DNA of 64,000 bases from IMG/VR virus record IMGVR_UViG_3300042564_004737; one strand, written 5' to 3'. Position 1 is the first letter of the stretch, and every line of letters begins with the position of its first letter. This DNA comes from a virus (taxonomy: Duplodnaviria; Heunggongvirae; Uroviricota; Caudoviricetes). The position numbers and the translations under genes were made by a program. Of the stretch, positions 14,473 to 29,060 are shown in pieces. Below the pieces are notes generated by a model. The model made no database searches, was not told the DNA's origin, and saw only the letters and a list, made by a program, of their open reading frames with translations.

Positions 14473-15798
14473 TTAAAAGTTGAATAATACAAATCGGAAA
14501 ATTTCCGATGATACTGACGTTGACAAAAGCATGCCAAATATCAGTGCGACGCGAACAGAAAACTCTTTGACAAAAACCCCAACACATACCGACATGGCAG
14601 TCAACAACAGATACAGACCCAGTTGGTGGTTGGCCATTCCTTCTGAAACACACACTGCCACGCTTACTGCAATCAGGATGGGATAAATTATCTTGTTCAA
14701 CCGAATGTAGAGGGAAATCATACTTTGATAAAACATTCCGGCAACCAACCAATTGACCACATTGACCAGTAACAGTATCACAATCAATGGTCCAGCCAGT
14801 GATGCTATCAAATTGAAACTGTTGTTGATTCCAAATCCGCTGCGTTCGGCCAAGGCCATGATCACTGCTTCGGATGGAATAATAGGCAATGCTAGAAATA
14901 TCAATGGTATCAACACAGTGATGGCAGCTGAATTGTTGGCAGCCTCTGCAGAAACCACTATTCGTTGATTGTTGTTGTTGATCTTTTTTTCCACCACTGC
15001 TGCAACCATTGACGACACAGATGTTCCTATCATAGGCACCAGGCCCATCACAGCACCTATCACGGATCCACGCAGGGATGACAGCACCGGTGGAAATTTT
15101 AATAAATTTGCTAGCCGAGTACGAATACCAAACTCATTCGAATTGATGTCAACACCGGATAAGGTATGCCTTGCATGATGAAATAACTCTGGCAACATTA
15201 GAAATCCAATGAACACCGGTACAAACGGAATGCCACTGGGCAGAAAATCTGCTGCGGATAAAAAATGTTCGCGCCTCAAAACATCGTACCCAATGTGTCC
15301 AATCGTCAGTCCTATAATTGCAAATGTCAGTGCCAGGATCTTTTGTTTGCTGGCCACACTGATCAACACAACAAGCACAGTTAACAATATCAATCTTGGA
15401 GTGTTGTTGATAAAGTACTTCATAAAATCAATGTACTGTGTGGCTGCATAAAAAATCACAACACCCACAACCGATGCTATCAGACTGGATGTGGCCGTGG
15501 CGCTTAGTAGTTCTGCACCACGCCCTTGCCTGAATTCATCATGGCCATACTGCACCGCTGGCACACTGGTGATTTCTCCGGCTATGCCATACACAATAGA
15601 TGGTATGCTGCTGTAGTACTGCACTGAAGACATCATCACTGAATAAAATACAAACAAATCCACCACCGGCAACCCGAGCAAAACAGGATACAAGATCATT
15701 ATTCCTGATGCAGGTCCTACTCCGGGAAATACGCCGATCACAATGCCGCTGGCTATGCCAAGCAGTATGATTGGTAATAGATACAGTAACTCTATCAT
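14473..15798 (-). CDS. TctA-family (DUF112) integral membrane transporter subunit
   Basis: 441 aa polytopic; repeated 'GxxPGxGP' loops (GVFPGVGPASG, GLVPMIGTSVS) characteristic of TctA. Confidence 0.5.
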   Translation of the reverse strand: MIELLYLLPIILLGIASGIVIGVFPGVGPASGIMILYPVLLGLPVVDLFVFYSVMMSSVQYYSSIPSIVYGIAGEITSVPAVQYGHDEFRQGRGAELLSATATSSLIASVVGVVIFYAATQYIDFMKYFINNTPRLILLTVLVVLISVASKQKILALTFAIIGLTIGHIGYDVLRREHFLSAADFLPSGIPFVPVFIGFLMLPELFHHARHTLSGVDINSNEFGIRTRLANLLKFPPVLSSLRGSVIGAVMGLVPMIGTSVSSMVAAVVEKKINNNNQRIVVSAEAANNSAAITVLIPLIFLALPIIPSEAVIMALAERSGFGINNSFNLIASLAGPLIVILLLVNVVNWLVAGMFYQSMISLYIRLNKIIYPILIAVSVAVCVSEGMANHQLGLYLLLTAMSVCVGVFVKEFSVRVALIFGMLLSTSVSSEIFRFVLFNF

Positions 15799-16931
15799 CT
15801 AATTTTGTACTCCCGCGAACTGACTGCATGATATGACTGCACTGATTGTCGATCTGAAGACAACAGCCCCATCCGCACCATGTAAGATTTTAGAGTCTGG
15901 TCCGTTTGCAAAATATGCCAGCCATCGATGTATTTTTTCACAGCCGAAGATTGACGCTGTAGTCCCGACAGCAATGGCAGACTTGTGGAATTTTTTGATA
16001 ATTGGTGCAATACCAGATCAGAGATTTCTTTTGAAAAATCAATTGATTTTACTATACTGTCGTGCTCGGCATTGATCTGTTTTTCCATTTGACTGATCCC
16101 CGGTATCACATCTGGGTCTCGGCCTTGCACTGCACATTTTAAATAGTAATTTTCTGGTTTTTCTAATTCTGCCAAGGTGGTGTTGGTTCGTAAACAATAG
16201 TTCAACATCATGTGACACTGTTTGGCATGCAAGGCTGGCAGGTCAGGAGATATAAAAAAGAACTCTAGGTCGCTGCGGTTCAATGACCCAGAAAATACGC
16301 GGTCTAAAAATCCAAAGTAATAGCCGTCTTTGCGCTGAATCAAATGCGGTTTTTCAAACCCCACAATGGTGCAATAGTTATAACTGTGGTAGGATTGATC
16401 AAAATTGTATTGATGCAGCACAGGCCGGCAGTATTTGATCAACTGATGTCTGAGATTTTTTCCATCGTTTACCATGTAATCTTCCGACGACAGTTGTTGT
16501 TCATATCCAAGAATATCGTCGTGAGTATGAATTGATTTTATATTGATTTTTGTAGTCTTGTCTGGATGATTTTCCAACAGCCAGGTCACTGCTTTTTCTG
16601 GCATCAAATTGTCGACGCCGGATCGTGCGTAACAAATATAGATCTCGTCTATGTGTATGTTGTTGCGTAAAAAAGTGTTGTATATAGTGACCGAGTCAGT
16701 GCCGCCGCTGAACGCCAGTATGAGTTTGTCGTATCTGTTTCTCAGTTGATGTGCTCGTCGGTCACACAGTGTTTGAAAACTTTCTGCTGGTTCTATGGTC
16801 CAATCAATGGCAGAAAACTCATGGTCGTAAAAATCAAATTTTGGAAATGTATGTGGATCGTGTATGGACCCGTGCAGGAACGCCGTGAACGGATTGTCAA
16901 ATCTTATTCCATTGATGTTGTAATAAACCAT
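15795..16931 (-). CDS. PP-loop (adenine nucleotide alpha-hydrolase) ATPase, AsnB/QueC-like
   Basis: 'LILAFSGGTDSVTIYN' SGGxDS PP-loop; 378 aa; promoter motif TGTTATAATATAACAG at 16991-17009. Confidence 0.5.
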   Translation of the reverse strand: MVYYNINGIRFDNPFTAFLHGSIHDPHTFPKFDFYDHEFSAIDWTIEPAESFQTLCDRRAHQLRNRYDKLILAFSGGTDSVTIYNTFLRNNIHIDEIYICYARSGVDNLMPEKAVTWLLENHPDKTTKINIKSIHTHDDILGYEQQLSSEDYMVNDGKNLRHQLIKYCRPVLHQYNFDQSYHSYNYCTIVGFEKPHLIQRKDGYYFGFLDRVFSGSLNRSDLEFFFISPDLPALHAKQCHMMLNYCLRTNTTLAELEKPENYYLKCAVQGRDPDVIPGISQMEKQINAEHDSIVKSIDFSKEISDLVLHQLSKNSTSLPLLSGLQRQSSAVKKYIDGWHILQTDQTLKSYMVRMGLLSSDRQSVQSYHAVSSREYKIR

Positions 16932-17105
16932 TGGCAGTTTTACTGTATTCAGGGAGATTGCTTGTAGAAGAACTCTACTTACGGTAGGCGTTCTGTTATA
17001 TTATAACAGTAAAGACATTGCTATGTCAAGCGTCAATTGGTGATCCGACGTCAACAGATTGTTGGCGTTGCTGATGTTATTTATATCGACTGCACACAAA
17101 CGGCC

Positions 17106-17133
17106 AAAAAAAAAGGCTACCGAAGTAGCCTTT
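17106..17133 (-). terminator. rho-independent terminator (aggctaccgaagtagcct + U-run on minus strand)
   Basis: same hairpin recurs at 25711-25743. Confidence 0.6.
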
Positions 17134-17151
17134 GTGTCCAATCGTGTTGGA

Positions 17152-17991
17152 TTAGAACGAGTGTGATACACGAACACGATATGTGTCAGTGTTGTTGGCA
17201 GCAGTTGTATTGCTGTTAACTTGTGCCACTGCCAATTGAACCGAAGTTCTCTTGCTCAATGCATACTCAGCACCAACTTCTTTGGCAGTGCCATTGCCGT
17301 CGGAATATGCAGCACCCACAGTCACAGCACCCATGGTGTAGGAAGCACCTACCACATAGGAGTCGGCAACATTGAGTTCATTGCGGCTGACACCCGCACC
17401 AACTGTGATGCCTTTTACAGTGGCTTTGGCGCTGGCACGAACACGCTCGGTAGTTTGGTTGTAGTCAACAGCACTGCTGATTGGGCCAACTGTGTAAGTT
17501 GCACCAAATGAGTTTTTGTTTGTGCCGGTGTTGTTGATGGCTCGAGTGTTGCTGACTTTGAATGCAATTCCCGACACTGTGGGTGTTGTATAGCTGACGG
17601 ATTGCACATTGGATTTGGCGCCCAATACGACTCCGTCTTGGCCCATAACTGGTGCATCGCCTAGGCCTAGACCAATGATACCATTGGCGGATTCAACTTG
17701 ACCGACCTTGACTGAACCAACACGAGTTGCAACATCAATATACAGGTCGTTGCCTTCGGTGGCAGTGCCGTTTCCACCAGGTTGAATTTCTGCATAGGCC
17801 TTGACAGTGATGCCATTGCCGATGGATTCCGTAGCAGTGAAGTTGATGTTGCTGGTGTCCATTGGGGACATGGTGGTCGATGAGTTGTCGGCCCGCTTGA
17901 TGTCGTATGCAAGTTTTCCGCCAATTTTGAACTGGGCGTGAGCTGTACCTAATGCAGCCAAAATTGCCACTGCGACTAATGCTTTTTTCAT
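17152..17991 (-). CDS. Gram-negative outer-membrane porin (Neisseria/Burkholderia-type, OmpC-like beta-barrel)
   Basis: signal peptide MKKALVAVAILAALGTAHA; Gly/Thr/Asn/Ser-rich alternating strands; C-terminal '...RVRVSHSF' terminal Phe. Confidence 0.6.
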   Translation of the reverse strand: MKKALVAVAILAALGTAHAQFKIGGKLAYDIKRADNSSTTMSPMDTSNINFTATESIGNGITVKAYAEIQPGGNGTATEGNDLYIDVATRVGSVKVGQVESANGIIGLGLGDAPVMGQDGVVLGAKSNVQSVSYTTPTVSGIAFKVSNTRAINNTGTNKNSFGATYTVGPISSAVDYNQTTERVRASAKATVKGITVGAGVSRNELNVADSYVVGASYTMGAVTVGAAYSDGNGTAKEVGAEYALSKRTSVQLAVAQVNSNTTAANNTDTYRVRVSHSF

Positions 17992-18120
17992 TGTGTATTT
18001 CCTTTGTAAGTATGAACGGGCAGAATTGCCACTCAAGTATTTATTGGTGGTCACTGCAACAACTTAGAAAACAAGCAGTTTACACTGGTTTTCTGGCTAA
18101 ATTGACCGGCAGACACCCAA

Positions 18121-18146
18121 AAGAAAACCCGCCCGGGGCGGGTTTA
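18121..18146 (-). terminator. rho-independent terminator
   Basis: acccgccc-cggg-gcgggt then UUUUCUUUUGGG on minus strand. Confidence 0.6.
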
Positions 18147-18162
18147 GCGAACTGCAACAGTT

Positions 18163-18405
18163 TTACTTGGCAGCTGGTTTAGCTTCTTCTTTTTTAGCAG
18201 CTGGCTTGGCTTCTTCTTTCTTGGCAGCTGGTTTAGCAGCTGGCTTGGCTTCTTCTTTCTTGGCAGCTGGCGCAGCAGCAGCAGGTGCAGCCGCAGGTGC
18301 AGCAGCAGGTGTAATATTAGAAGGTGCAGCTGGTTTAGCAGCAGGAGCCTGGGCAAATGCAGTGGCAGCAGCCACGGCAGCGATAATAGCGATAAGTTGT
18401 TTCAT
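18163..18405 (-). CDS. secreted Ala/Pro/Lys-repeat protein
   Basis: signal peptide MKQLIAIIAAVAAATAFA; tandem AAKPAAKKEEAKP repeats (also visible as DNA direct repeats 18170-18260). Confidence 0.5.
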   Translation of the reverse strand: MKQLIAIIAAVAAATAFAQAPAAKPAAPSNITPAAAPAAAPAAAAPAAKKEEAKPAAKPAAKKEEAKPAAKKEEAKPAAK

Positions 18406-18494
18406 GAAATTGTCCTTTTGTTTAAAAAAATATATATATCTAACAGTACAACGGATTGTTGTACAACATTATATATGCCGCATTACAAATAAGT

Positions 18495-18530
18495 CAAAAA
18501 AATAGGACCCGAAGGTCCTATTTACTATTT
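18495..18530 (-). terminator. rho-independent terminator ending tRNA/tmRNA operon
   Basis: aggacc-uucg-ggucc followed by UUUUUUU on minus strand. Confidence 0.65.
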
Positions 18531-18865
18531 TCTGTTTCTAAGCATAGTTGCTCAAAGCAGTGTTTAGACTGCTAAGGAGTGGCGTTGTGCTGTACGAGCA
18601 GAGAACTTGACGTTCTTACCTGAAACAGTTACTTCACCTGTATTTGCGTTTGCATTTACGGTTTTTGTGTCTACGGCCGAAATACTCCGACCCTAACGGC
18701 TTCTACATTGCCGGACTGTCCATTTCTTTACTTGTGACCCAATCGATAGCCTGGTCATCCCCACCTAAATATACCTCATACACTTAGGTGGAGATGGTGG
18801 GAGTCGAACCCACGTCTTGAATCCTTTTCTGTCTACTTCATACAGTCTTAACTTTTATTTATTTT
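18500..18865 (-). ncRNA. ssrA: circularly permuted (two-piece) tmRNA, ssrA: acceptor piece ~18865-18787, processing hairpin 18763-18786, coding piece 18762-~18500
   Basis: T-arm GTGGG-TTCGACT-CCCAC + 3' acceptor CATCTCC-A-CC upstream of 5' acceptor GGGGATG (G3:U70); 5' piece GGGGATGACCAGGCTATCGATTGGG matches tmRNA 5' consensus; ORF GCAAACGCA...TTAGCAGTCTAA (…HSLAV*). Confidence 0.6.
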
Positions 18866-18870
18866 ATATT

Positions 18871-18945
18871 TGGTCTCAGTAGCAGGAATCGAACCTACGC
18901 TCCTTGGTCCCAAACCAAGAGTGATACCATTTCACCATACTGAGA
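18871..18945 (-). tRNA. tRNA-Pro(TGG)
   Basis: cloverleaf read by hand; anticodon loop TTTGGGA; CCA encoded. Confidence 0.8.
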
Positions 18946-19111
18946 ATTAACTGGGAATCATTTTTGGCAAGTAAGGCACTGCCCTGGGTCCATGCCGTTG
19001 TTGCAGTAACAAACGAGCTTCTTGTGCATCGTTGGCACCAACCCTGTCCAAGAACTCTCGACCGTTTACTCTTACTGTTGCTTCAAATAGTTTCATACAC
19101 ACCTTTAAAAT

Positions 19112-19187
19112 TGGTACATCCTCACGGTTTCGAACCGCGGACCCTCTCCTTGTAAGGGAGACGCTCTACCCCTGAGCTAAGGATGCA
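19112..19187 (-). tRNA. tRNA-Val(TAC)
   Basis: anticodon loop CTTACAA; T-loop TTCGAAA. Confidence 0.8.
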
Positions 19188-19192
19188 AAAAA

Positions 19193-19268
19193 TGGAGCGG
19201 CTAACCGGGTTCGAACCGGTGACGTCTTGCTTGGCAAGCAAGTACTCTACCAACTGAGCTACAGCCGC
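19193..19268 (-). tRNA. tRNA-Gly(GCC)
   Basis: anticodon loop TTGCCAA. Confidence 0.8.
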
Positions 19269-19278
19269 ATATGTTAAC

Positions 19279-19354
19279 TGGTACCAAGAGACGGGATCGA
19301 ACCGCCCACACACGAATTTTCAATCCGCTGCTCTACCAACTGAGCTATCTTGGT
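19279..19354 (-). tRNA. tRNA-Phe(GAA)
   Basis: anticodon loop TTGAAAA. Confidence 0.75.
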
Positions 19355-19355
19355 G

Positions 19356-19430
19356 TGGTGGAAGTAAGTAGATTCGAACTACTGACCCGCAGCGTATGAA
19401 GCTGCTGCACTACCGCTGTGCTATACTTCC
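19356..19430 (-). tRNA. tRNA-Met/Ile2(CAT) copy 1
   Basis: anticodon loop TTCATAC; perfect acceptor GGAAGTA/TACTTCC. Confidence 0.8.
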
Positions 19431-19440
19431 AGAACTGCTG

Positions 19441-19517
19441 TGGGGTATAGTATGGAATTCGAATCCATGCTGACGGAATCACAATCCGTAGTGCTGACCG
19501 CTGACACTAACTACACC
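19441..19517 (-). tRNA. tRNA-His(GTG) with G-1
   Basis: anticodon loop TTGTGAT; extra 5' G; discriminator C. Confidence 0.75.
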
Positions 19518-19641
19518 ATATAGAAACACACTACGGAGTCGAACCGCCTTGCTAGCTCCTCGCCCGAGGATGGCATTCGAGCAACCCATAACACCCGCCG
19601 CTAAACGGGCTCGTCACTCTATGCTAGTGTGTTTTTATATG
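19516..19641. repeat. palindromic element A (terminal IR CCATATAGAAACACACT / AGTGTGTTTTTATATG, ~90-nt structured core)
   Basis: inverted repeat arms 19516-19532 and 19626-19641; abuts tRNA-His 5' end. Confidence 0.6.
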
Positions 19642-19645
19642 ATCT

Positions 19646-19761
19646 GACCATATAAGAACACATTCGTTTCCTAGCTTTACGGCGGCATGCCTGCTCTTTG
19701 GGATAGCACCTGCGTCCAGTTGCTAGGTATCCACTAACCGTTGAATGTGTTCTTATATGGC
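19646..19761. repeat. palindromic element B (IR GACCATATAAGAACACATTC / GAATGTGTTCTTATATGGC)
   Basis: arms 19646-19665 and 19743-19761; nested inner IR cctagc...gctagg. Confidence 0.6.
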
Positions 19762-19867
19762 GTCGCTACCCTCTGGCGGTCAAGCCTGCTCTTGCGACTT
19801 CTTGGCGATTGCCCATCCCCTATGTGTTGTGACTAGCAACCTAGTTGGTCCGGGATCTACCAATACT

Positions 19868-19996
19868 GACCATAGTTGAATACACTCTCGGCGTAAAGGG
19901 CTTTTTCATCGTGCTAGTTAAGCTACTTCGTTGCGTCCGCCCTGCTAACCAAGCAGACTGTCGGGTCAACCAATGATGAATGTATTCAACTATGGC
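19868..19996. repeat. palindromic element C (IR GACCATAGTTGAATACAC / GAATGTATTCAACTATGGC)
   Basis: arms 19868-19886 and 19978-19996. Confidence 0.55.
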
Positions 19997-20044
19997 AACT
20001 TCTAATTCAAGCAAGGGCGTGTGACCATTGAACTCAAATAGTTT

Positions 20045-20149
20045 TACCATATAGAAACACACTATTGTTTTACAATAAACTACGCTCCTGAGTTTCTGCT
20101 CAGGACCCCATAGGTCTGCCTATGTTTTCTAATGTGTTTTTATATGGTA
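20045..20149. repeat. palindromic element D (IR TACCATATAGAAACACACT / AATGTGTTTTTATATGGTA)
   Basis: arms 20045-20063 and 20131-20149; right arm overlaps 3' CCA of tRNA-Lys. Confidence 0.6.
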
Positions 20150-20220
20150 GGACCACCCGGACTCGAACCGGGAATTGGCAGATTAAAAGTCTGCTGTGAT
20201 AACCATTTCACTATGATCCC
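20145..20220 (-). tRNA. tRNA-Lys(TTT)
   Basis: anticodon loop CTTTTAA. Confidence 0.75.
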
Positions 20221-20365
20221 ATACTCAGTCGTGAATTGTCTTTCGAGTGCCAATCCAGACCGACATGGGATCTGGGTTGACACTACATTTTAGCTGTTCG
20301 CTTCATATAGTCTTTCGTTTAAGTTTTGATTATACAACAATTGCAGAATGTTGTCAACTGTTTTT

Positions 20366-20442
20366 GGTGCGTCCTGAGAGACTCGAACTCCCGGCCCCCG
20401 GCTTCGTAAACCAGTGCTCTGATCCAGCTGAGCTAAAGACGC
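20366..20442 (-). tRNA. tRNA-Arg(ACG)
   Basis: anticodon loop TTACGAA; T-arm GGGAG-TTCGAGT-CTCTC. Confidence 0.7.
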
Positions 20443-20450
20443 ATTGAGTA

Positions 20451-20520
20451 GCCCCGGAGGAAGGAATCGAACCTTCATTGGTTGTATACGGACCTGTGTT
20501 ACCATTACACTACAACCGGG
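20451..20520 (-). tRNA. tRNA-like gene, anticodon unresolved
   Basis: good T-arm GAAGG-TTCGATT-CCTTC and 5-bp acceptor, but anticodon arm could not be folded canonically. Confidence 0.3.
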
Positions 20521-20529
20521 ATAAAAAGA

Positions 20530-20604
20530 TGGTGCCCCACGACAGAATCGAACTGCCATCACAGGATTACAAAACCAGTGTACTGCCATTGTACTAGTAG
20601 GGCT
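20530..20604 (-). tRNA. tRNA-Thr(TGT) (tentative)
   Basis: anticodon loop TTTGTAA with two mismatches in anticodon stem; acceptor GCCCTAC/GTGGGGC. Confidence 0.5.
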
Positions 20605-20610
20605 AAAAAT

Positions 20611-20686
20611 TGGCTCCTCAGGTACGGATCGAACGTACGACATCTTCATTAACAGTGAAGCGCAACTACCGCTGTGCTACTGAGGA
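20611..20686 (-). tRNA. tRNA-Asn(GTT)
   Basis: anticodon loop CTGTTAA; perfect acceptor TCCTCAG/CTGAGGA. Confidence 0.8.
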
Positions 20687-20695
20687 ATAAACCAT

Positions 20696-20787
20696 TGGTG
20701 GAGAATAAGAGATTCGAACTCTTGGAGCCAATTACTTGACCCGACAGGTTAGCAACCTGCTGCCTTCGACCACTCGGCCAACTCTCC
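20696..20787 (-). tRNA. tRNA-Ser(GCT), class II
   Basis: 92 nt, long variable arm; anticodon loop TTGCTAA. Confidence 0.75.
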
Positions 20788-20834
20788 GTTATCTCTATTA
20801 TATAGCAGTTGACCAACAGTGTCAACATATATTT

Positions 20835-20910
20835 GGTGCCGCCACGTGAACTCGAATCACGGACCTTTCGCTTATCAAGCGAATGCTCTAACCAACTGAG
20901 CTATGGAGGC
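20835..20910 (-). tRNA. tRNA-Ile(GAT)
   Basis: anticodon loop TTGATAA. Confidence 0.75.
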
Positions 20911-20917
20911 ATTATTT

Positions 20918-20991
20918 TGGCAGAGGGTACTGGGATCGAACCAGTGATGACAGAGTCAAAGTCTGTAGTGTTGCCGCTACACTAACCCCCA
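20918..20991 (-). tRNA. tRNA-Gln(TTG)
   Basis: anticodon loop CTTTGAC; 1-72 mismatch. Confidence 0.65.
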
Positions 20992-20998
20992 ATAAATT

Positions 20999-21074
20999 TG
21001 GTGGAGGATATCAGGATCGAACTGATTACCTACTGCTTGCAAAGCAGCCGCTCTCCCAAATGAGCTAATCCCCC
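20999..21074 (-). tRNA. tRNA-Ala(TGC)
   Basis: anticodon loop TTTGCAA; G3:U70 in acceptor GGGGGAT/ATCCTCC. Confidence 0.75.
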
Positions 21075-21080
21075 GTTTTT

Positions 21081-21157
21081 TGGCCGGCCCTGAGAGATTC
21101 AAACTCCCAACTTCCAGTTTCGAAGACTGGCACTCTATTCGATTGAGTTAAGGACCG
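21081..21157 (-). tRNA. tRNA-Arg(TCG)
   Basis: anticodon loop CTTCGAA. Confidence 0.75.
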
Positions 21158-21162
21158 ATGTT

Positions 21163-21238
21163 TGGCGTACCGCCAGGGATTCGAACCCCGAACCGCTGGT
21201 TTTGGAGACCAGAACTCTGCCAGTTGAGCTAGCGATAC
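21163..21238 (-). tRNA. tRNA-Trp(CCA)
   Basis: anticodon loop CTCCAAA. Confidence 0.8.
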
Positions 21239-21280
21239 ATTTTAAAAATTCAATACAAATTGCCAATAAGTACTGGTGAC

Positions 21281-21970
21281 ATGAAAAACTTTTTCTTACA
21301 CCAACTTGTTCATCAAAGACACCCGGAATATCAACCATTGACTTCAGTGTTGCCGATATGCAATGTCAAAAACTCAATGGCAAAAAGTCTAAAGGCACTG
21401 TCAAAAATTACATACAACAATGATGATGCCTTCCAGGCGTTTTCGGTCAACAGTAAATATTTTGAACTGATGGCCGAAAATCCAAAAACATTCAATGTAG
21501 ACAACATACCACCGGAGACACTGAGACAATGGGTGTACGATTCCGAGTTTGACGAATTACTAACAAAAAATTCTCACATGGAAGTAAAATTACAAGACCC
21601 AATTCTAAAATTTGTTGTCTCTGAATTTTTGAATGCCATTGGGCTAGATCCGGCTCACCTGGCCGTCAGTCGAGCAAAATTAAACATACAAAAACCTGGT
21701 CAAATATTTCCTTTGCATCTGGACCGAGTTCGGCACAATGACTATCATGCTGACGAAAAACAACTTGTGTCGGATCCATCACATGATAGATTTCTAATTT
21801 TTTTAGAAGATCAGCAACCGGGACAAATGTTTCAATTTGACATGTGTAACATAACATGGTCAGCCGGAGACGTGTTCACTTGGAATGCCCGAGACACCAT
21901 GCATGCATCAGCAAATACAGGATATTGGACCAGAAGACTTCTGTTGATTGATGTGGGCAAAAAGACCTGA
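21281..21970 (+). CDS. hypothetical protein (only sizeable plus-strand gene inside the tRNA region)
   Basis: ORF 21260..21970; probable start MKNFFLHQL at 21281. Confidence 0.45.
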   Translation: MKNFFLHQLVHQRHPEYQPLTSVLPICNVKNSMAKSLKALSKITYNNDDAFQAFSVNSKYFELMAENPKTFNVDNIPPETLRQWVYDSEFDELLTKNSHMEVKLQDPILKFVVSEFLNAIGLDPAHLAVSRAKLNIQKPGQIFPLHLDRVRHNDYHADEKQLVSDPSHDRFLIFLEDQQPGQMFQFDMCNITWSAGDVFTWNARDTMHASANTGYWTRRLLLIDVGKKT

Positions 21971-21999
21971 TCTGATTGCCCGTATTTTCTAACACACTG

Positions 22000-22090
22000 T
22001 TGCCAATGTGTGTATTAAAGCACACTCACCCGAATGGACCTTGTCACCTCCGCCTGCTGTCGGAAGTGTGCTTTAATACGCTGTGATTTT
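22000..22090. repeat. palindromic element E (IR TGTGTATTAAAGCACACT / AGTGTGCTTTAATACG)
   Basis: arms 22008-22025 and 22065-22080. Confidence 0.5.
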
Positions 22091-22184
22091 TCGCTCCACA
22101 AAAGGAGTTTCATCCCACAGGCCGCCCGTTTACAACTTGTTTTAAGTGCGTTGTCAGGACCTCGTTTCCTGGGCATTGCTGCTC

Positions 22185-22355
22185 TTATTCACACTTTGCG
22201 ATCTGCGACGGCCCTTGGGCAGTCTCTCGCTGTTTTGCTGCTCGGTGATGCTGTGCGGCACGTTCGACCTTTTTACGGATCAATTGCTTGAACTGTTCTT
22301 TAGTCAGTGTATGCGTTGCCGTCCACTCTGCTTGCTTAATCTTTTTATCTGTCAT
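22185..22355 (-). CDS. small basic Lys/Arg-rich protein (56 aa)
   Basis: MTDKKIKQAEWTATHTLTKEQFKQLIRKKVERAAQHHRAAKQRETAQGPSQIAKCE; AAGGAA RBS; not in track (<60 aa). Confidence 0.4.
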   Translation of the reverse strand: MTDKKIKQAEWTATHTLTKEQFKQLIRKKVERAAQHHRAAKQRETAQGPSQIAKCE

Positions 22356-22367
22356 TGTTCCTTGCTA

Positions 22368-22412
22368 AAATAAAAAAACCCTGGGTTTTTAATCCAGGGT
22401 CCTTGAAGTTTG
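22368..22412 (-). terminator. rho-independent terminator with conserved 5' flank CAAACTTCAAGGACCCTGG
   Basis: on minus strand ccctgg-auuaaaaa-cccagg then UUUUUUUAUUUU; same module at 29418-29460. Confidence 0.6.
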
Positions 22413-22611
22413 TCGGTTACTGCTGTTATGCGCAACTGCTTTCTTCTCGGACCCTGTGATTCGCTGTAATATTCTTGACACGGCCAAAACCGCGTGACCA
22501 CGGCTGAGCCTGGGTCGTTACGCGATGCATGGGGCTAAAAATATTAGTGTTCATCATAAATCCTATTGTATGTTATTTATCATTCTGTGTCAACCACCGA
22601 TGATTTGTTAT

Positions 22612-22687
22612 TGGTAGCGGGACTTGGATTTGAACCAAGGATTGCGAAGGCTTATGAGACCCTGCCGGTGACCGGACCCTTCCCGCG
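22612..22687 (-). tRNA. tRNA-Met(CAT) copy 2 (C1:U72 mismatch, possibly initiator-like)
   Basis: 76 nt; anticodon loop CTCATAA; T-arm CTTGG-TTCAAAT-CCAAG; CCA encoded. Confidence 0.65.
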
Positions 22688-22699
22688 GTAGTTTATTTA

Positions 22700-22763
22700 T
22701 CTATTCTGAAACACACTATCTGCGGCATTGCAGCCCGCATCAGCTTAATGTGTTTTAGAATAG
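22700..22763. repeat. palindromic element F (IR TCTATTCTGAAACACACT / TAATGTGTTTTAGAATAG)
   Basis: immediately 5' of tRNA-Met copy 2. Confidence 0.55.
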
Positions 22764-23100
22764 TGGAGCACTGAGAATACATGCTTACCCAACAACACCT
22801 CGGACATTATTACGATCCTTGCGAGACCGCTTTCTTCCGACTTCCACCAAGACCCTTGCAGGTTTCCTGGTCTGTTGCCAGCATCGCCGTTTTTAAAGAC
22901 AGGCAGTAGTCTTGTCGCCATATGCTATTCTACGCTTTCTATCCCGTTGACCTTTAGAGCCATTCACTGTCGCTAAACAGTTACGAAACTTCCTGCATAA
23001 ACAGATTTCACCTTGCGAGTTACGTCTGACTTGATTCTCTTGCGAGCCAAGTATTAGATGCTTTTCACATACGACCGAGTCAGTCTTTGCTTTTTAATAG

Positions 23101-23176
23101 TTAGATGGATTTGAACCGTCTGCCTACTCCTTAACAGGGAGTTGCTCTACCAATTGAGCTATAACGAACCTACTGC
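23101..23176 (-). pseudogene. tRNA-Asn(GTT)-like element with defective acceptor stem
   Basis: perfect anticodon arm ACTCC-CTGTTAA-GGAGT and D-arm, T-loop TTCAAAT, but only 5/7 acceptor pairs and C-A mismatch in T stem. Confidence 0.3.
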
Positions 23177-23714
23177 GATGTGCTGACTCAGTTGCTGCAT
23201 AAAGTTTTGCTCTACACAATACAACACACCACGTTCCTTTTGTCTTGCGAACTACTCAGACGTCTTTTGCGATCTGTGTTGACCCCGCCTTTCGACAGCC
23301 TCCACTGACCACTCAAACTGCATACAAGCCCTTGGGTGCAACCCCTCGGACCGATACACTACCCTTTCTCATGCCAATTAACTGGACTGGTTTTGTTGTG
23401 AAGTCAGCACCACCTGTTACTTTCCATCTGCTCCGGTTACCCTTGCGGGCCGGTAAGCCGACGTTCTTTCCACAACATCCAGCGTCATTGTTACCTCCAC
23501 CGGTCTTATCAGTGAAGGGACTCTCGCGAGTCTGAGCAGGCTTGTCTAAACGAACCGTTGCTGGCGGAGTTATGTAGGCATACCTCCTTTGGCTGTGTCA
23601 CCACAGTTATTCTTCACTAGACAGCAAGCTGCCTAGTAGGACATTAAACTGCCCCGGAATCTTATTGTAACATCAACTGTTGAACTTGTCAACACCTAAT
23701 TTTACCAAACTTTA

Positions 23715-23818
23715 TATTGTTGAACACACCACTGAAATTGAGTATGAAGGAATCGAACCTTCTTTCACGCCCCACGTACTCGATGCCCGTTTCAGTCAGG
23801 CTAATGTGCTCAACAATA
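23715..23818. repeat. palindromic element G (IR TATTGTTGAACACACC / AATGTGCTCAACAATA) enclosing a tRNA 3'-half-like T-arm
   Basis: inner GAAGG-TTCGATT-CCTTC T-arm without matching 5' half. Confidence 0.45.
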
Positions 23819-23903
23819 TCAAGTAAGTATCTATTGTATGACAAACATCTTTGCTTGTCAAATTGTTTTGGATAAACTGATAAAAAGTTTATCCAACACG
23901 ATC

Positions 23904-23993
23904 TGGTACCAGCGGAGAGAATCGAACTCTCTCAAAGCCGCTAATCTGGCGGAAAGGGCATATAAGACCCCTCGGACTCCAAGTCTCGCTGGC
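23904..23993 (-). tRNA. class-II-length tRNA-like gene (90 nt), anticodon loop CTTATAT (TAT?) uncertain
   Basis: acceptor GCCAGCG/CGCTGGT + A + CCA, T-arm GAGAG-TTCGATT-CTCTC, long variable hairpin; 3-bp D stem; anticodon stem has G:U pairs. Confidence 0.35.
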
Positions 23994-24369
23994 ATATTGA
24001 ATTTGTTAGAGTAGCAGCACCACGTTATTGCTGCCATTCACCCGAATTAACAAGCTCGAGCGGGAGTCGGTAAGTTACTTGGGATACCGGTCCAGTTGAT
24101 ACGCCGTCATGTATGCCGATCCCACTCAAGCGATCAGCCGGGCATCGAACCCGCAACCTTCTACTGTTTTGGTCCTTCGAAGAAACCTAGACAGCGTGAC
24201 TTTCTCTTGCTAACACTCTAACAAAACTTGGCGCCCCTAACAGGAATTAAACCTGTCTACGTTCAGCTTCAAATCTGACTCGCAACACAGTCCAGGGCAT
24301 AACTTGGCGCAGAACATTTCTGTTTTTATCCGTGTCCAGGAATATTACTCCAGACAAAAACTGCAAATT

Positions 24370-24461
24370 TGGGGCATCATGTGGGATTCGAACCCACGCA
24401 AGAAAACCTTGATGATCATTCAAGGTTGAGGCAAACCGCACCCCGTTACATCCTATGACAC
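24370..24461 (-). tRNA. class-II-length tRNA-like gene (92 nt), anticodon unresolved
   Basis: acceptor GTGTCAT/ATGATGC + C + CCA, T-arm GTGGG-TTCGAAT-CCCAC; internal hairpin CCTTGA-ATGATCA-TCAAGG. Confidence 0.3.
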
Positions 24462-24706
24462 CATAAACTAATTAAGAGCTTGTAGACCAAACTACAATTT
24501 ACCGGTTTCTAGACGAACTCTTAAACTTGGTGGTTAGTGCTGTTGCGACACAGCGACATCCCTTGAGCGAGAGCGTAGGAACTTAATCTACGGGTAAACA
24601 CCTCTTGGGTCGAACAGTCAGGACAATTACTTTTGTAAGGCGTACTAAGCAGCGCCTGTTCAGAGCGCTCCCTTTGGGTTACTTTCATTTCCAACTAACC
24701 AAAACT

Positions 24707-24783
24707 TGGTAGGCCCTCTGTGAGTCGAACACAGCACCAACAGATTATGAGTCTGCTGCTCTAACCAACATGAGCTAAGGGCC
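24707..24783 (-). tRNA. tRNA-Met(CAT) copy 3
   Basis: anticodon loop CTCATAA; T-loop TTCGACT. Confidence 0.75.
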
Positions 24784-24791
24784 TGTTAACT

Positions 24792-24866
24792 TGGCGATGC
24801 GTGGGAGAGTCGAACTCCCGTCTCTGGATAGACAATCCAGGATAATGACCGTTATATGAACGCACC
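24792..24866 (-). tRNA. tRNA-Asp(GTC)
   Basis: anticodon arm CTGGA-TTGTCTA-TCCAG. Confidence 0.8.
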
Positions 24867-25100
24867 TAAATTTGTGAAAATGTTATGAGGACTCTTACCC
24901 CACCGTTGTTTGTATAGGCTGCGCGACCCATACGTCCCGGACACATTTTCTGACCCGGCGGTGTTTACTTTGTGGCTCTTGCTTTCCACTTGATTTCGTT
25001 TCCCGGTCGGAACTTCACCGACAATATACTGCAAGCATCTATGCAGCCTTGTTAATTCATCGCCCACAGGATTTGCATTAGGGCTCTGACGAGAAATATT

Positions 25101-25187
25101 TGGTGGATGAGGTTGGACTTGAACCAACAATGCCATTACGACGGAAGATTTACAGTCTCCTGGGGTTACCAATTTTCCTACACATCC
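25101..25187 (-). tRNA. tRNA-Tyr(GTA), class II
   Basis: 87 nt; anticodon loop CTGTAAA; long variable arm. Confidence 0.7.
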
Positions 25188-25194
25188 AAAAACA

Positions 25195-25269
25195 TGGTAG
25201 AGCATAGCGGAGTCGAACCGCTCTTAGTGGACTGAAAACCCACTGTCCTAACCGATAGACGAATGCTCC
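25195..25269 (-). tRNA. tRNA-Glu(TTC)
   Basis: anticodon loop TTTTCAG. Confidence 0.75.
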
Positions 25270-25274
25270 AAATT

Positions 25275-25409
25275 TATTATATTGAAACGCACTCGGCTCC
25301 CCTTACAACCTTGTTCCTGTCAATTCAGGATGAACCTGGCTCAAGTCCAGCGGCTCCCCTTGGTTGTTTGTATCTGTCAATTCAGATTGAAAATGTGTTT
25401 CAATATAAT
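25275..25409. repeat. palindromic element H (IR TATTATATTGAAACGCACT / AATGTGTTTCAATATAAT) with internal ~45-nt direct repeat
   Basis: internal repeats cggctcccctt...tgtcaattcag x2. Confidence 0.55.
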
Positions 25410-25483
25410 TTCTTGCCGTAGCAAGAAAAAATATTAGTAAATTTTTAAAGAATTCTCTTCAGCTACTCGATCGTTTGCTGCTG

Positions 25484-25502
25484 TTATGTGTGTATTATAG
25501 CA
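25484..25502 (-). promoter_or_regulatory. extended -10 promoter (TGCTATAATACACACATAA) with conserved upstream box CTACTCGATCGTTTG
   Basis: same 45-bp promoter region as 29287-29321; drives tRNA block. Confidence 0.55.
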
Positions 25503-25530
25503 CTGATGCGATTTTGTGTCTACCAGCGCC

Positions 25531-25564
25531 ATAAAAAAACCCGCCTAGTTAGCGGGTCTTTGTG
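25531..25564 (-). terminator. rho-independent terminator
   Basis: acccgc-uaacuag-gcgggu then UUUUUUUU on minus strand. Confidence 0.6.
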
Positions 25565-25674
25565 AATGTAGTACTTTTGTTAACTACAATGGCAAAGACC
25601 CCTGGGACAATCACGCTCATAGGCTATCTCATAGATGGCCGGCGTGTTGTTAGCAGTGAATGTGATTTGCGTAA

Positions 25675-25695
25675 TCATAGTGTATTATATATGCC
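25675..25695 (-). promoter_or_regulatory. promoter motif variant (ATATATAATACACTATGA)
   Basis: gtgtattatatatg core. Confidence 0.4.
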
Positions 25696-25710
25696 TTTTG
25701 TTTAAAAGTC

Positions 25711-25743
25711 AAGAAAAAAGGCTATCAAAGTAGCCTTTTTAAC
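25711..25743. terminator. bidirectional terminator (aggctatcaaagtagcct)
   Basis: same hairpin as 17106-17133. Confidence 0.6.
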
Positions 25744-25745
25744 AT

Positions 25746-25833
25746 TGGCGGAAGTGGTAGGATTCGAACCCACGATACCTTGCGATATGACTGATTAGTA
25801 ATCAGCTGCCTTAGGCCACTCAGCCACACTTCC
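25746..25833 (-). tRNA. class II tRNA, Ser-type body, apparent anticodon ACT (unusual)
   Basis: 88 nt; perfect acceptor GGAAGTG/CACTTCC; anticodon arm GCTGA-TTACTAA-TCAGT; D-arm like tRNA-Ser(TGA) at 29145. Confidence 0.5.
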
Positions 25834-26333
25834 TAAACTCGTTCATTGACTCGAACACGATGTCGTGCAGTGGCCAATCCTTTGAAGCGATCCGCAGCAT
25901 AACTGGCAGCAAACGCTTCGGGTTTGACCAATGGTGTTATGTTGCAGGTTCCTTTTATATAGCCAATGGCCTGTGCAATCACACAGCTGGATCCGTGGCG
26001 TTCGTCTGGATTGATGTCCAAGTGTACTTCCACTTCTCGGCCGTTCAGCACTTCGCCCAGCCGATGATACATGTCAGAAACTTTGTACACTTCGTTCATC
26101 AGTCGCATGCTGGGCCGTGCAGTTTTTTGATCATAGTCACGCTCGCGGCACACTTCGCCAAATATCTTGCATCCGCTGTTGCCGTTGATATGCACCACAA
26201 TGGCCAGTGTGTAATCGGCCCACCATTCGTTGTTGATTCGGATTCGTTCGCTGTCGCAACCCAAATAGATGCGAGTCATTGGGCCTTGTGCTTCTATGAA
26301 TTGTTTTACTTTTACAAGATTAATGGTTTGCAT
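25833..26333 (-). CDS. hypothetical protein
   Basis: 166-aa ORF directly abutting tRNA. Confidence 0.45.
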   Translation of the reverse strand: MQTINLVKVKQFIEAQGPMTRIYLGCDSERIRINNEWWADYTLAIVVHINGNSGCKIFGEVCRERDYDQKTARPSMRLMNEVYKVSDMYHRLGEVLNGREVEVHLDINPDERHGSSCVIAQAIGYIKGTCNITPLVKPEAFAASYAADRFKGLATARHRVRVNERV

Positions 26334-26361
26334 AATTTTCTCAAATCGATCAACATAAAAA

Positions 26362-26435
26362 CTGGAGCGGGATGGGGGAATCGAACCCCCGACTTTAGAT
26401 TGGAAATCTAAGGTAATACCATTTTACGAATCCCG
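26362..26435 (-). tRNA. tRNA-Gly(TCC)
   Basis: anticodon loop TTTCCAA; T-arm GGGGG-TTCGATT-CCCCC. Confidence 0.8.
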
Positions 26436-26557
26436 CAATAGTGTACCGATGCTTATACAAGCAGGAGCATTGCTCGGTACCACACAAAGGCAGGATTTAA
26501 AAAGAGCCTGCACTCTGACTACTCTATTTACTCTTTAAAATTCAACTGTGAATTAAC

Positions 26558-26635
26558 TGGAGTAGCGGGTGAGATTCGAACTCACGGTTTTAGGGATTTG
26601 CAATCCCTTGCATTGGGCCTCTCTGCCACCGCTAC
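26558..26635 (-). tRNA. tRNA-Cys(GCA)
   Basis: anticodon arm AGGGA-TTGCAAA-TCCCT; perfect acceptor. Confidence 0.8.
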
Positions 26636-26650
26636 TTTAAAATTCCAGGC

Positions 26651-27253
26651 CTACATTGTAGGACCATTGCCGTTACGAAAACCCACTGACCCACCTTCTG
26701 CTTCGATGCGTTTGATCACATCTTCAAACAGTATCGGTGCAAAGTCAGTCTGTTCCACGCATACACAATGATAGCGTGGATCAATCTCGTCGCTGTACAA
26801 GATTTCACCAGTTCTAGCATCAACTCCACGGGCTTTGCGTACACGATTTGCGTGAGTATGTCCGTGTATGTTGACGCCAAAACGCCCCAAGCTGTCACTG
26901 TGTACAGGAATGTGGCTAAGGATCATGCCGTTCATCACATGGTACGCCCGTAATTCACGAAAGTATTCACGATACTCTTCATCACGGAAGATATCATGGT
27001 TGCCACGGATTAACACCTTGTCGCCGTTCAATCTGGCCAGAGTCTTTAATGCTTTGCGGTTTATAACCACATCACCCAAGTGATATACCTTGTCCGTGGG
27101 TTTAACTCGTTTGTTCCAGGCCGTGACCATGGCTTCGTCCATTTCCTCAGCACTATCCCACGGGCGTAATTTGGTGACACCATCGTTGCGGGTAAAGCGG
27201 CATACACCCATGTGTCCAAAGTGCGTGTCGCTGACTAAAAATACACTAGGCAT
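26651..27253 (-). CDS. calcineurin-like metallophosphoesterase
   Basis: 'VSDTHFGH', 'GDVV', 'GNHD' motifs; promoter motif 27279-27293. Confidence 0.75.
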   Translation of the reverse strand: MPSVFLVSDTHFGHMGVCRFTRNDGVTKLRPWDSAEEMDEAMVTAWNKRVKPTDKVYHLGDVVINRKALKTLARLNGDKVLIRGNHDIFRDEEYREYFRELRAYHVMNGMILSHIPVHSDSLGRFGVNIHGHTHANRVRKARGVDARTGEILYSDEIDPRYHCVCVEQTDFAPILFEDVIKRIEAEGGSVGFRNGNGPTM

Positions 27254-27359
27254 CTTGCCCTCCTTTTCTTGCGTTGTAACCTATATTATAGCAGATTGTG
27301 GCTTTGCAGTCAATCAAACGGCTGTTGTAATTATATCGTACTATAGTTAAATATAGTAA

Positions 27360-27554
27360 ATGAAATATTCTTTGTTGTTTGTGTTGTTGGCAGGCTCTAC
27401 AGCATTAAATGCTGTGGCACCACCAACGGAAAAATTAGACAAGAATGAACAATGGGTGTGTACACTGTGGAGTTGGTCGGGCCAAGCTCCCAATAGAGAA
27501 GTTTGGTGTCGACGCTGGGAAAAGCAATTTAAACCTTATATTCTACGATCATGA
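27360..27554 (+). CDS. small secreted protein
   Basis: signal peptide MKYSLLFVLLAGSTALNA; plus strand. Confidence 0.4.
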   Translation: MKYSLLFVLLAGSTALNAVAPPTEKLDKNEQWVCTLWSWSGQAPNREVWCRRWEKQFKPYILRS

Positions 27555-28036
27555 TTGACCCTGTGACAATTGGCCTGGCATTCACTGCGGCACAGCAAGC
27601 AATTGGCGGCATTAAAAAAGCCATTGCCATGGGCAAAGACATCAACAGCTTATACGGACAGTTTAGTTCATTTTTTCAAAATTGCGACAAAGTTTATGTG
27701 GCCAATGTCAAGCTGATGAATTCTACTTCTTTGCTGAGCAATGGAGAAATTGCTTCAAGATCTTTGCAAACTGCCATGCACAGCAAAGCACTGCGGGACG
27801 CTGAAAAAGAACTTAAAGAAATGCTGATCTGGTCCGGCAACAAAGATGTCTGGGATCAAATGCAGTCCGAGCGAGTGCGTATGTACAAAGAACGAGCAGA
27901 AGTTGAAAGAAAAATGGCAGCAGCCAATCGCAAAGCACAAGAAGACATATTACAAACATTTCTTGTGTTTTCTTGTTTTGTGGCCATTGCAATTCCGGCA
28001 TTTTTTCTCAGCCTGGTAATGCTATCCAGAGCCTAA
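27551..28036 (+). CDS. coiled-coil protein with C-terminal transmembrane anchor
   Basis: 161 aa; C-terminal hydrophobic FLVFSCFVAIAIPAFFLSLVML; plus strand. Confidence 0.4.
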   Translation: MIDPVTIGLAFTAAQQAIGGIKKAIAMGKDINSLYGQFSSFFQNCDKVYVANVKLMNSTSLLSNGEIASRSLQTAMHSKALRDAEKELKEMLIWSGNKDVWDQMQSERVRMYKERAEVERKMAAANRKAQEDILQTFLVFSCFVAIAIPAFFLSLVMLSRA

Positions 28037-28043
28037 CCCAGTA

Positions 28044-28517: not shown

Positions 28518-28540
28518 AGTGTGATTGCTTTTATATACTT

Positions 28541-28617
28541 GGTGCCCTAGGAGAGACTCGAACTCTCAGCTTACGGCTTCTAAGACCGCTGTGTCTACCA
28601 ATTTCACCACCAGGGCA
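28541..28617 (-). tRNA. tRNA-Leu(TAG)
   Basis: anticodon loop CTTAGAA; D-arm shared with Leu(TAA); only 77 nt (short variable arm). Confidence 0.6.
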
Positions 28618-28624
28618 TATATCT

Positions 28625-28798: not shown

Positions 28799-28841
28799 GA
28801 TTGCTTTCTTTAATTTAACTTGATTAACTGACTTATTTAAA

Positions 28842-28928: not shown

Positions 28929-28969
28929 ATTGTTCTATTATAACTTGTTTGTTGATCTTTGTCAACCAT

Positions 28970-29055: not shown

Positions 29056-29060
29056 ATGTT

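Follow-up and report, generated by a model that had tools for sequence, protein, structure and literature searches.

What is a transfer-messenger RNA (tmRNA, encoded by ssrA) for at the end of a viral tRNA array, and why should its peptide tag be three times the usual length? These questions are raised by the IMG/VR virus record IMGVR_UViG_3300042564_004737 (Caudoviricetes), from which a stretch of 64,000 nucleotides (nt), here called the window, was analyzed. The window carries 30 tRNA genes on its minus strand (18871-29234), and 19 nt after the last of them, a tRNA-Pro, lies a gene that an initial annotation had proposed to be a permuted two-piece ssrA at the 3' end of the tRNA operon.

Identity of the gene and its tag

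At the 3' end of its tRNA array, the phage carries a circularly permuted ssrA in which the acceptor piece precedes the coding piece, and this identification is supported by gene finding, by covariance models, and by helices that covary in relatives. As the initial annotation had expected, ARAGORN called a permuted tmRNA (flag tmRNA*) on the minus strand, at 18473-18878, with the tag ANANTGEVTVSGKNVKFSARTAQRHSLAV*. Rfam family RF04321 (tmRNA_permuted) matched 18564-18847 (minus) over model positions 1-213 of 213 with 89.4 bits (E = 7e-16), above the curated gathering score of 47. The gene is complete, with both tRNA-like halves, a pseudoknot 1 (PK1) region, a full tag frame, helix 5, pseudoknot 2 (PK2), and a terminator. 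The 356-nt precursor folds with an energy well below that of its shuffles (z = -5.5), and its minimum-free-energy fold combines the T arm, a long helix of acceptor stem and intervening segment, two hairpins ahead of the tag, and the terminator. It is very probable that the locus yields a functional permuted tmRNA that is translated into the tag, whose frame is located as follows.

18564..18653, minus strand: tag reading frame of 29 codons, GCA AAC GCA ... UUA GCA GUC UAA (ARAGORN and RF04321 alignment of UAAAUGCAAACG ... UAGCAGUCUAA)
18653-18651, minus strand: resume codon GCA, preceded by UAAAU
18566-18564, minus strand: tag stop codon UAA, in the loop of a covarying hairpin

Copies of the tag were collected from viral contigs with a degenerate pattern over nine of its codons (codons 12-20). 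The pattern retrieved 54 viral stretches, and in each of them the match proved to be a tmRNA tag, in frame and closed by a stop codon; together they comprise 35 distinct nucleotide and 30 distinct protein versions. Among the 28 distinct tags of 90 nt, the first, second, and third codon positions hold 8, 7, and 17 variable sites, respectively. In codons 6-11 (GEVTVS) and 28-29 (AV), which the pattern leaves unconstrained, the amino acids are invariant save for one Ser-to-Thr change at codon 11, and synonymous changes are present; Ser11 is written as TCA, TCT, TCG, or AGT. Tags of 27 and 28 codons also occur and differ from the others by whole codons. The same picture of conservation was obtained from six long-tag genes retrieved via the tRNA-like domain alone, one of which (locus L086) carries a diverged version of the tag, ANANTKGEVAINARGVKIARRAAVLA. 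The tag ends in LAV or FAV except in 1 of 55 copies, which has LAA, and conservation extends to the context of the resume codon (UAAAUGCAAAC) and to the position of the stop codon within the helix 5 loop. Across these copies, the pattern of change shows a tag peptide held by selection at the protein level.

These observations bear on the possibility that the RNA is a decoy with an unused frame, which would block or titrate trans-translation in the host by binding SmpB, alanyl-tRNA synthetase (AlaRS), or ribosomes. Such inhibition has a precedent in the tag-less tmRNA-like RNA of mycobacteriophage DS6A, which inhibits Escherichia coli tmRNA (PMC11915505), and a decoy would fit a tRNA-like domain that is far better conserved than the remaining gene. 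However, a decoy needs no frame, yet here the frame is intact in 54 of 54 copies, with substitutions mostly at third positions, serine kept through TCN-to-AGT changes, indels in multiples of three, and resume context and stop placement preserved. We regard a decoy as quite improbable.

Two-piece architecture and covariation

The remaining features of the gene, from the tRNA-Pro to the terminator, are as follows.

18852..18870, minus strand: A/T-rich spacer AAUAUAAAAUAAAUAAAAG, 19 nt, between the tRNA-Pro (which ends at 18871) and the tmRNA gene (sequence)
18787..18851, minus strand: acceptor piece, the tRNA-like 3' half (RF04321 alignment and ARAGORN)
18847-18842, minus strand: strand GACUGU of helix P2 (RF04321 alignment)
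18823-18821 and 18819-18817, minus strand: P2 strands GAU and CAA (RF04321 alignment)
18813-18797, minus strand: T arm GUGGG-UUCGACU-CCCAC (sequence)
18796-18790, minus strand: 3' acceptor strand CAUCUCC (sequence)
18789, minus strand: discriminator A73, followed by CC at 18788-18787
18763..18786, minus strand: intervening segment, 24 nt, which extends the acceptor stem into a long hairpin in the precursor (sequence)
18714..18762, minus strand: 5' end of the coding piece (RF04321 alignment)
18762-18756, minus strand: 5' acceptor strand GGGGAUG, which carries G3
within 18714..18762, minus strand: D-loop-like GGCUAUCGA (RF04321 alignment)
18742-18740 and 18738-18736, minus strand: P2 partner strands UUG and GUC
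18719-18714, minus strand: P2 partner strand ACAGUC
18666..18713, minus strand: PK1 region (covariation, 17 sequences)
18713-18710 and 18700-18697, minus strand: PK1 hairpin 1, CGGC/GCCG (100% paired, nearly invariant)
18692-18686 and 18681-18675, minus strand: PK1 hairpin 2, GGUCGGA/UUCGGCC (98.3% paired, 3 compensatory pairs)
18707-18705 and 18668-18666, minus strand: possible PK1 tertiary pairing of 3 base pairs (bp), UGU with ACA
18556..18573, minus strand: helix 5, AGCAGU (18573-18568) with ACUGCU (18561-18556), with the UAA stop in its 6-nt loop
18524..18554, minus strand: predicted PK2, an H-type pseudoknot (covariation)
18554-18550 and 18543-18539, minus strand: PK2 stem 1, UGAGC/GCUUA (97.6% paired, 2 compensatory pairs)
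18548-18544 and 18528-18524, minus strand: PK2 stem 2, ACUAU with AUAGU (71.7% paired overall, 4 of 5 pairs compensatory)
18494..18523, minus strand: intrinsic terminator AAAUAGGACC-UUCG-GGUCCUAUUU followed by a U run (10-bp stem, 4 G-C pairs)

This arrangement confirms the order of a circular permutation, since the T arm and the 3' acceptor strand lie upstream of the 5' acceptor strand, with the intervening segment between them. The acceptor stem consists of the pairs G1-C72, G2-C71, G3·U70, G4-C69, A5-U68, U6-A67, and G7-C66. The T arm, the 7-bp acceptor stem with its G3·U70 wobble, and the 24-nt intervening hairpin all lie on the minus strand where the initial annotation had placed them, as do the frame ending in SLAV* (18653-18564) and the terminator that follows (18523-18494). 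Other details of that annotation need adjustment. The hairpin arm UUAGGUGG overlaps the first two G of GGGGAUG; the match to the 5' consensus of tmRNAs holds overall, but one extra base precedes the UCGA in the RF04321 alignment; and the frame is real, but its resume codon lies 109 nt after G1 and not at about 130 nt. The middle of helix P2 is an internal loop in the window, where the pairing expected by the Rfam models is not formed.

A structure-aware DNA pattern run on viral contigs retrieved 40 stretches with the signatures of a permuted tmRNA, most of which were also called by ARAGORN. These relatives form two groups, one with short tags (ANDSQFALAA, ANDEKFLMAA) and the other with a long tag like that of the window. 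For the analysis of covariation, 33 distinct sequences were aligned with MAFFT without structure information after removal of the intervening segment. Paired cells amount to 96.6% overall, against 70% in shuffles and 38-51% in slid controls, and the covariation score of 0.652 (0.169 when shuffled) was reached by 0 of 500 shuffles. In the T and acceptor stems every cell is paired (100%), and 8 of their 12 pairs show compensatory changes (4 of 5 in the T stem and 4 of 7 in the acceptor stem, where pairs 4-7 covary), while G1-C72, G2-C71, and G3·U70 are invariant in all 33. The inner part of P2, made of two short helices, is 89.9% paired, with 5 of 6 pairs compensatory. The fold is therefore supported by stems that covary across these 33 distinct relatives. 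Within the long-tag lineage there are at least seven acceptor-stem sequences and several variants of the T loop and PK1.

Many long-tag relatives carry noncanonical T loops inside perfectly paired T stems. In place of UUCGAnU, the loop is GGCAGUG or GGCGGAG in L132, L135, L136, L138, L145, and L162, UGCAACU in L123, L124, L137, and L144, and UGCGAAU in L130 and L140.

The structures that flank the tag follow the anatomy reviewed for two-piece tmRNAs, with PK1 ahead of it and PK2 behind it (PMC3985003). In PK1, the loop U/C covaries with the tail A/G at the tertiary contact (UA in 7, CG in 5, UG in 5, and unpaired in 0 of 17 sequences), and a PK1 pseudoknot is thus tentatively proposed and only partly established. 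Helix 5 is paired in 88.9% of cells in the relatives, and a synonymous Leu change from UUA to UUG is offset on its opposite strand (A-U to G-C). For PK2, stem 2 varies as ACUAU/AUAGU, AUUAU/AUAAU, and GUUAU/AUAAC in the class to which the window belongs and reaches 9 bp in L081 and L099, so that a PK2 pseudoknot is the supported prediction for this class. The terminal hairpin of the beta_tmRNA model is also placed at 18494-18523.

The ends of the two pieces vary among relatives. The intervening segment measures 24-99 nt and is variable in sequence, with its flanking stems kept; longer segments (to about 99 nt), between the CCA end and G1, occur in L130, L161, L124, L156, and others. The acceptor end reads ACCA, ACCG, or ACCU in the relatives and AAAA in L121 and L127. 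Upstream of the gene, relatives have ATAAATA or TATAAATA 5-8 nt ahead of a conserved GTTA start, and a sigma-70 promoter scan found none in the spacer at 18852-18870. The spacer AAUAUAAAAUAAAUAAAAG may serve as a promoter-like element of the phage or may be no more than a spacer for processing.

Distribution and history of the tag

The tag pattern was searched in 185,579 bacterial and archaeal species genomes, one per species, and gave 4 chance matches, all in ordinary open reading frames (ORFs) and none near a tmRNA. No match was obtained by tblastn of the tag against 50,697 GenBank phage records, even at E = 10, and a nucleotide search of the tmRNA against the same records found just a 65-nt match to the T arm in an Acinetobacter phage. 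Searches for tag-like protein segments, which could have pointed to mimicry of a natural C terminus by the tag, returned noise only, both for the window and for 1.8 Mb of related loci. By these comparisons, the tag is shown to be restricted, as far as can be judged from genome sequences, to phages. The tag sequence is absent from the searchable literature, and the supplement of the 2025 tmRNA database paper gives no tag sequences (PMC11915505); a conserved, phage-only long tag appears to be undescribed. This tag is what sets the gene apart, a point that the initial annotation had missed.

This distribution weighs on the idea that the gene is a remnant or attachment site derived from a host ssrA, with no phage function of its own. 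Temperate phages often insert into ssrA and take its 3' end along, and fragments of this common integration site occur in prophages (PMC9004378, PMC11915505). The gene in the window, however, is complete, its helices covary, and its tag is under protein-level selection in dozens of relatives; the absence of the tag from all 185,579 species genomes excludes a recent copy of a host gene, and no integrase was found among the window ORFs scanned. We consider such a remnant extremely improbable.

The relatives of the gene outline how the tag may have arisen. Among the 55 long-tag loci, 50 share window proteins at 60-90% identity, and relatives at about 65% identity have short, host-like ANDxxFALAA tags on a near-identical tRNA-like domain. 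The end of the long tag (...UUA GCA GUC UAA) is homologous to that of the short-tag relatives (...UUA GCA GCC UAA), and a single base change (GCC to GUC) therefore turned LAA into LAV, while about 57-60 extra nt were inserted after GCAAACG. In the simplest history, a two-piece ssrA of betaproteobacterial type would have been captured by an ancestor of this phage group, and the tag later lengthened and fixed in one sublineage, after which the tRNA-like half would have diverged by compensatory changes.

Proposed mechanism and fate of the tagged proteins

The steps of processing, charging, and delivery by SmpB set out here are inferred from established tmRNA biology (PMC3985003, PMC11915505); what the phage gains and what becomes of tagged proteins are likewise inferences. 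The tRNA array and the tmRNA would be transcribed together, or the tmRNA just after, as a single precursor that runs to the intrinsic terminator. The 24-nt intervening hairpin would be excised by tRNA-processing enzymes, with RNase P cleaving 5' of G1, and the acceptor end would be finished by 3' trimming and by a CCA-adding enzyme that supplies the missing terminal A. This would yield two RNAs, the acceptor piece (about 65 nt) and the coding piece (about 265 nt), joined via the acceptor stem and helix P2. The acceptor stem with G3·U70 would be charged by AlaRS, and SmpB, presumably from the host or from elsewhere in the genome of about 350 kb, would bring the RNA to ribosomes stalled on broken messages. 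Translation would resume at GCA, adding Ala and 29 residues, and stop at the UAA of the helix 5 loop. For the phage, the likely benefit would be added ribosome rescue during destruction of host mRNA or while RNA-targeting defenses are active; published proposals are the upkeep of the hijacked translation apparatus and the recycling of host protein (PMC9004378, PMC7162821).

Canonical ssrA degrons have about 10 residues of the form ANDxxFALAA and end in LAA. Such degrons are carried by the short-tag relatives, whereas the long tag has 29 codons and retains only AN of the start. The DExF/Y segment, used by host-type tags for adaptor binding, is lost from it. Its pattern is that of a 29-codon tag with the core GEVTVSGKNVKFSAR and the C terminus (L/F)AV, and the predicted addition to a rescued protein is AANANTGEVTVSGKNVKFSARTAQRHSLAV. 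The invariant core argues for a sequence-specific partner and not a passive spacer, and together with the loss of the DExF/Y segment it points to a changed reader of the tag. We tentatively propose that the phage lineage has respecified the fate of its tag, most likely through another adaptor or protease preference, with the hydrophobic, degron-like end kept. Equally tentative is the fuller form of this proposal, in which a jumbo-phage lineage gives rescued polypeptides a 30-residue peptide, A-ANxxxGEVTVSGKNVKFSARxxxxx(L/F)AV, that is read by a different partner. Candidates for this partner are adaptors or proteases, of the phage or of the host, outside the SspB/ClpXP route; alternatively, the fate could be nondegradative, such as sequestration.

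The same tag can be read as the product of an ordinary helper tmRNA recently borrowed from a host, the long tag being only a longer degron for the same host proteases. It keeps the AN start, and its hydrophobic X-A-V end is one base change from LAA. Tail-specific and AAA+ proteases accept various nonpolar C termini. Moreover, the long ssrA tags of Mesoplasma and Mycoplasma are still degrons, recognized by Lon (PMC10695633, PMC8403727). A recent borrowing is at odds with a tag that is absent from all sampled bacterial genomes and fixed across a diverse phage lineage, and the loss of the adaptor segment and the invariant core (partly forced by the search at codons 12-20) also speak against continued use of the host route. 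We consider this reading, with the tag as simply a longer degron for the same proteases, quite possible and only slightly less likely than a respecified fate.

Several observations weigh against the proposal of a respecified tag on a working two-piece tmRNA. The long tag could be a plain longer degron for ClpXP, Lon, or Tsp. Codons 12-20 owe part of their conservation to the search pattern, and over the whole tag the ratio of nonsynonymous to synonymous polymorphism (pN/pS) is only 0.58. The terminal A of CCA is not encoded in the window, which reads ACC-U. The general permuted model passes its threshold, but the best lineage-specific one, the betaproteobacterial beta_tmRNA (RF01850), which scores highest of the tRNA-clan models at this site, aligns over its full length with 67.4 bits against a gathering score of 84. 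PK1 is backed as two hairpins plus a candidate tertiary contact of only 3 bp, and PK2 stem 2 could not be located in the "GGACAU" subclass of relatives. A scan of about 50 window ORFs yielded no SmpB, CCA-adding enzyme, or Clp/Lon protease, and a probe for SmpB, with a rough approximate query, found nothing in 1.8 Mb of related loci.

The carrier phage and its neighboring genes

Besides 31 tRNAs and a GOLLD RNA, the window encodes a T4-type family B DNA polymerase, ThyX (3013-3705, minus strand), and many enzymes typical of large phages. The polymerase shares 46-49% identity with its counterparts in the jumbo phages Atu_ph07 and Phosso and 82-100% with copies on many IMG/VR contigs, two of which measure 347 and 364 kb; a megablast search of 25 kb of the window against GenBank phages found none similar. 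Because of this kinship, the size of these relatives, and the lack of a similar GenBank phage, the carrier is evidently an uncultured jumbo phage.

The tRNA array contains further RNA features. A GOLLD RNA (RF02032) lies inside it at 22768-23232 (minus strand; 197 bits against a cutoff of 150), and its linker region contains a tRNA-Asn(GUU) at 23095-23169. Covalent linkage of tRNAs to GOLLD RNAs was described in a 2025 cryo-electron microscopy paper (PMC12286853), and the GOLLD RNA of the window is a further example, in a jumbo phage. A tRNA-Ser with the anticodon ACU (25746-25833, minus strand) has the loop UUACUAA, unusual for its unmodified-looking A34, and this tRNA is kept beside the tmRNA in L081, L084, L099, and L107. 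The tRNA callers differ at two places: a 90-nt "tRNA-Ile(UAU)" at 23904-23993 (minus strand) was called by ARAGORN only and has no Rfam match, and a weak tRNA match at 20452-20519 (minus strand) was given by Rfam only (32 bits against a cutoff of 29). Three protein genes are also found among the tRNAs on the minus strand: at 28044-28517 one for an AAA_33-type kinase, at 26651-27253 one for a calcineurin-like phosphoesterase, and at 25833-26333 one for an RNaseH-like protein. The first two recall the T4 polynucleotide kinase/phosphatase and may act in the repair of RNA or tRNA.

A strong sigma-70-like promoter (TTGACT-18-TATAAT, 18497-18468, minus strand) directly follows the tmRNA terminator. 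Downstream of it on the same strand are a small ORF with a signal peptide, predicted to be secreted (18405-18163), a Gram-negative porin of the Porin_4 family (17152-18054), an uncharacterized 378-amino-acid ORF, and a TctA transporter subunit (14473-15798). This stretch (14473-18497, minus strand) thus holds host-like envelope and transport genes in a phage. Elsewhere in the window lie GTP cyclohydrolase I (46069-46836, minus strand), a 6-pyruvoyl-tetrahydropterin synthase/QueD-like protein (41912-42463, minus strand), radical SAM proteins (37884-38759, minus strand, and 29637-30659, plus strand), and several methyltransferases, a set that suggests a 7-deazaguanine-type pathway of nucleotide or DNA modification. 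A 1,466-amino-acid protein with LysM as its sole recognizable domain (59462-63862, minus strand) and a 737-amino-acid subtilase (Peptidase_S8; 42931-45144, minus strand) complete the picture; apart from this subtilase no protease was seen in the window, and nothing ties it to the tag.

The host is indicated only faintly. The closest matches of the porin are other metagenomic, probably phage, copies that form a clade of their own; among named cellular proteins, the nearest to it, at 34% identity, belongs to a Comamonadaceae bacterium, and the porin has no sequence match among solved structures. The FALAA ending of the short-tag relatives is one that we take to be typical of Betaproteobacteria. 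The initial annotation had suggested that the gene order could hint at the host lineage, and the best lineage-specific model is indeed of the beta type, but it stays below its cutoff and the lineage of a phage tmRNA can differ from that of its host (Buchholz et al. 2022, PMC9004378). Taken together, these signs hint weakly at a Burkholderiales host.

Relation to known tmRNAs and significance

The nearest cellular counterpart of the gene is the betaproteobacterial two-piece tmRNA, reportedly described by Sharkady and Williams in 2004. The two share the permuted order, the form of the intervening hairpin (CCACCuAAG...uUUAGgUGGGG), the terminal hairpin or terminator, and a full-length alignment to what is the top lineage-specific model, and the short-tag phage relatives carry tags of the ANDxxFALAA type. 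The window gene differs in scoring below the gathering score of RF01850, in an unpaired middle of P2, in having 29 codons instead of about 10, in its LAV end, and in being encoded by a phage.

The initial annotation overstated the case in calling a phage-borne permuted tmRNA unusual: such genes are not new, because a search of public phage genomes published in 2022 had found 53 two-piece tmRNAs, 50 of which came from marine or aquatic samples (Buchholz et al. 2022, PMC9004378), and the 2025 tmRNA database lists 79 bacteriophage tmRNAs (PMC11915505). The Methylophilales phage Melnitz, pelagimyophages, and cyanophages resemble the carrier in having a complete permuted ssrA in a large, lytic-type, myovirus-like phage with tRNAs (PMC9004378), and the roles proposed for the marine and aquatic phage tmRNAs, sustaining hijacked translation or tagging for recycling, are the same. 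The ssrA of Melnitz is of alphaproteobacterial type and was described together with a glutamine riboswitch (PMC9004378); in the window, no Rfam family for a glutamine or other riboswitch was found in 18300-19000 at E values up to 10, where the only matches were tmRNA models and noise. Unlike the phages of Buchholz et al., the gene has a long conserved tag that is not in PMC9004378, and its similarity to GenBank phages is limited to the T-arm match.

The ssrA genes of Mycoplasma and Mesoplasma set a precedent for a lineage that lengthens and rewrites its tag and switches protease, although their tags are unrelated in sequence and these tmRNAs are one-piece and bacterial. Huge phages likewise combine big genomes, large sets of tRNAs, and a tmRNA, sometimes with SmpB (Al-Shayeb et al. 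2020, PMC7162821); that survey gives ARAGORN presence calls only and does not appear to discuss permutation or tag content.

The comparison brings out a tmRNA family confined to phages, represented by dozens of distinct copies and marked by a fixed, inserted tag core of 15 residues. The tRNA-like half evolves freely via compensatory change whereas the tag core stays put, which implies a specific reader of the tag. The tag sequence offers a simple metagenome marker for the jumbo-phage lineage of the window, and, if it has a protease or adaptor of its own, it would be a candidate orthogonal degron. The family also provides a handle on why large phages carry tmRNA, be it for rescue capacity, for amino-acid recycling, or for a redirected fate of tagged proteins. 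If the tag is indeed read by a different partner, trans-translation during infection would serve the phage and not the quality control of the host.

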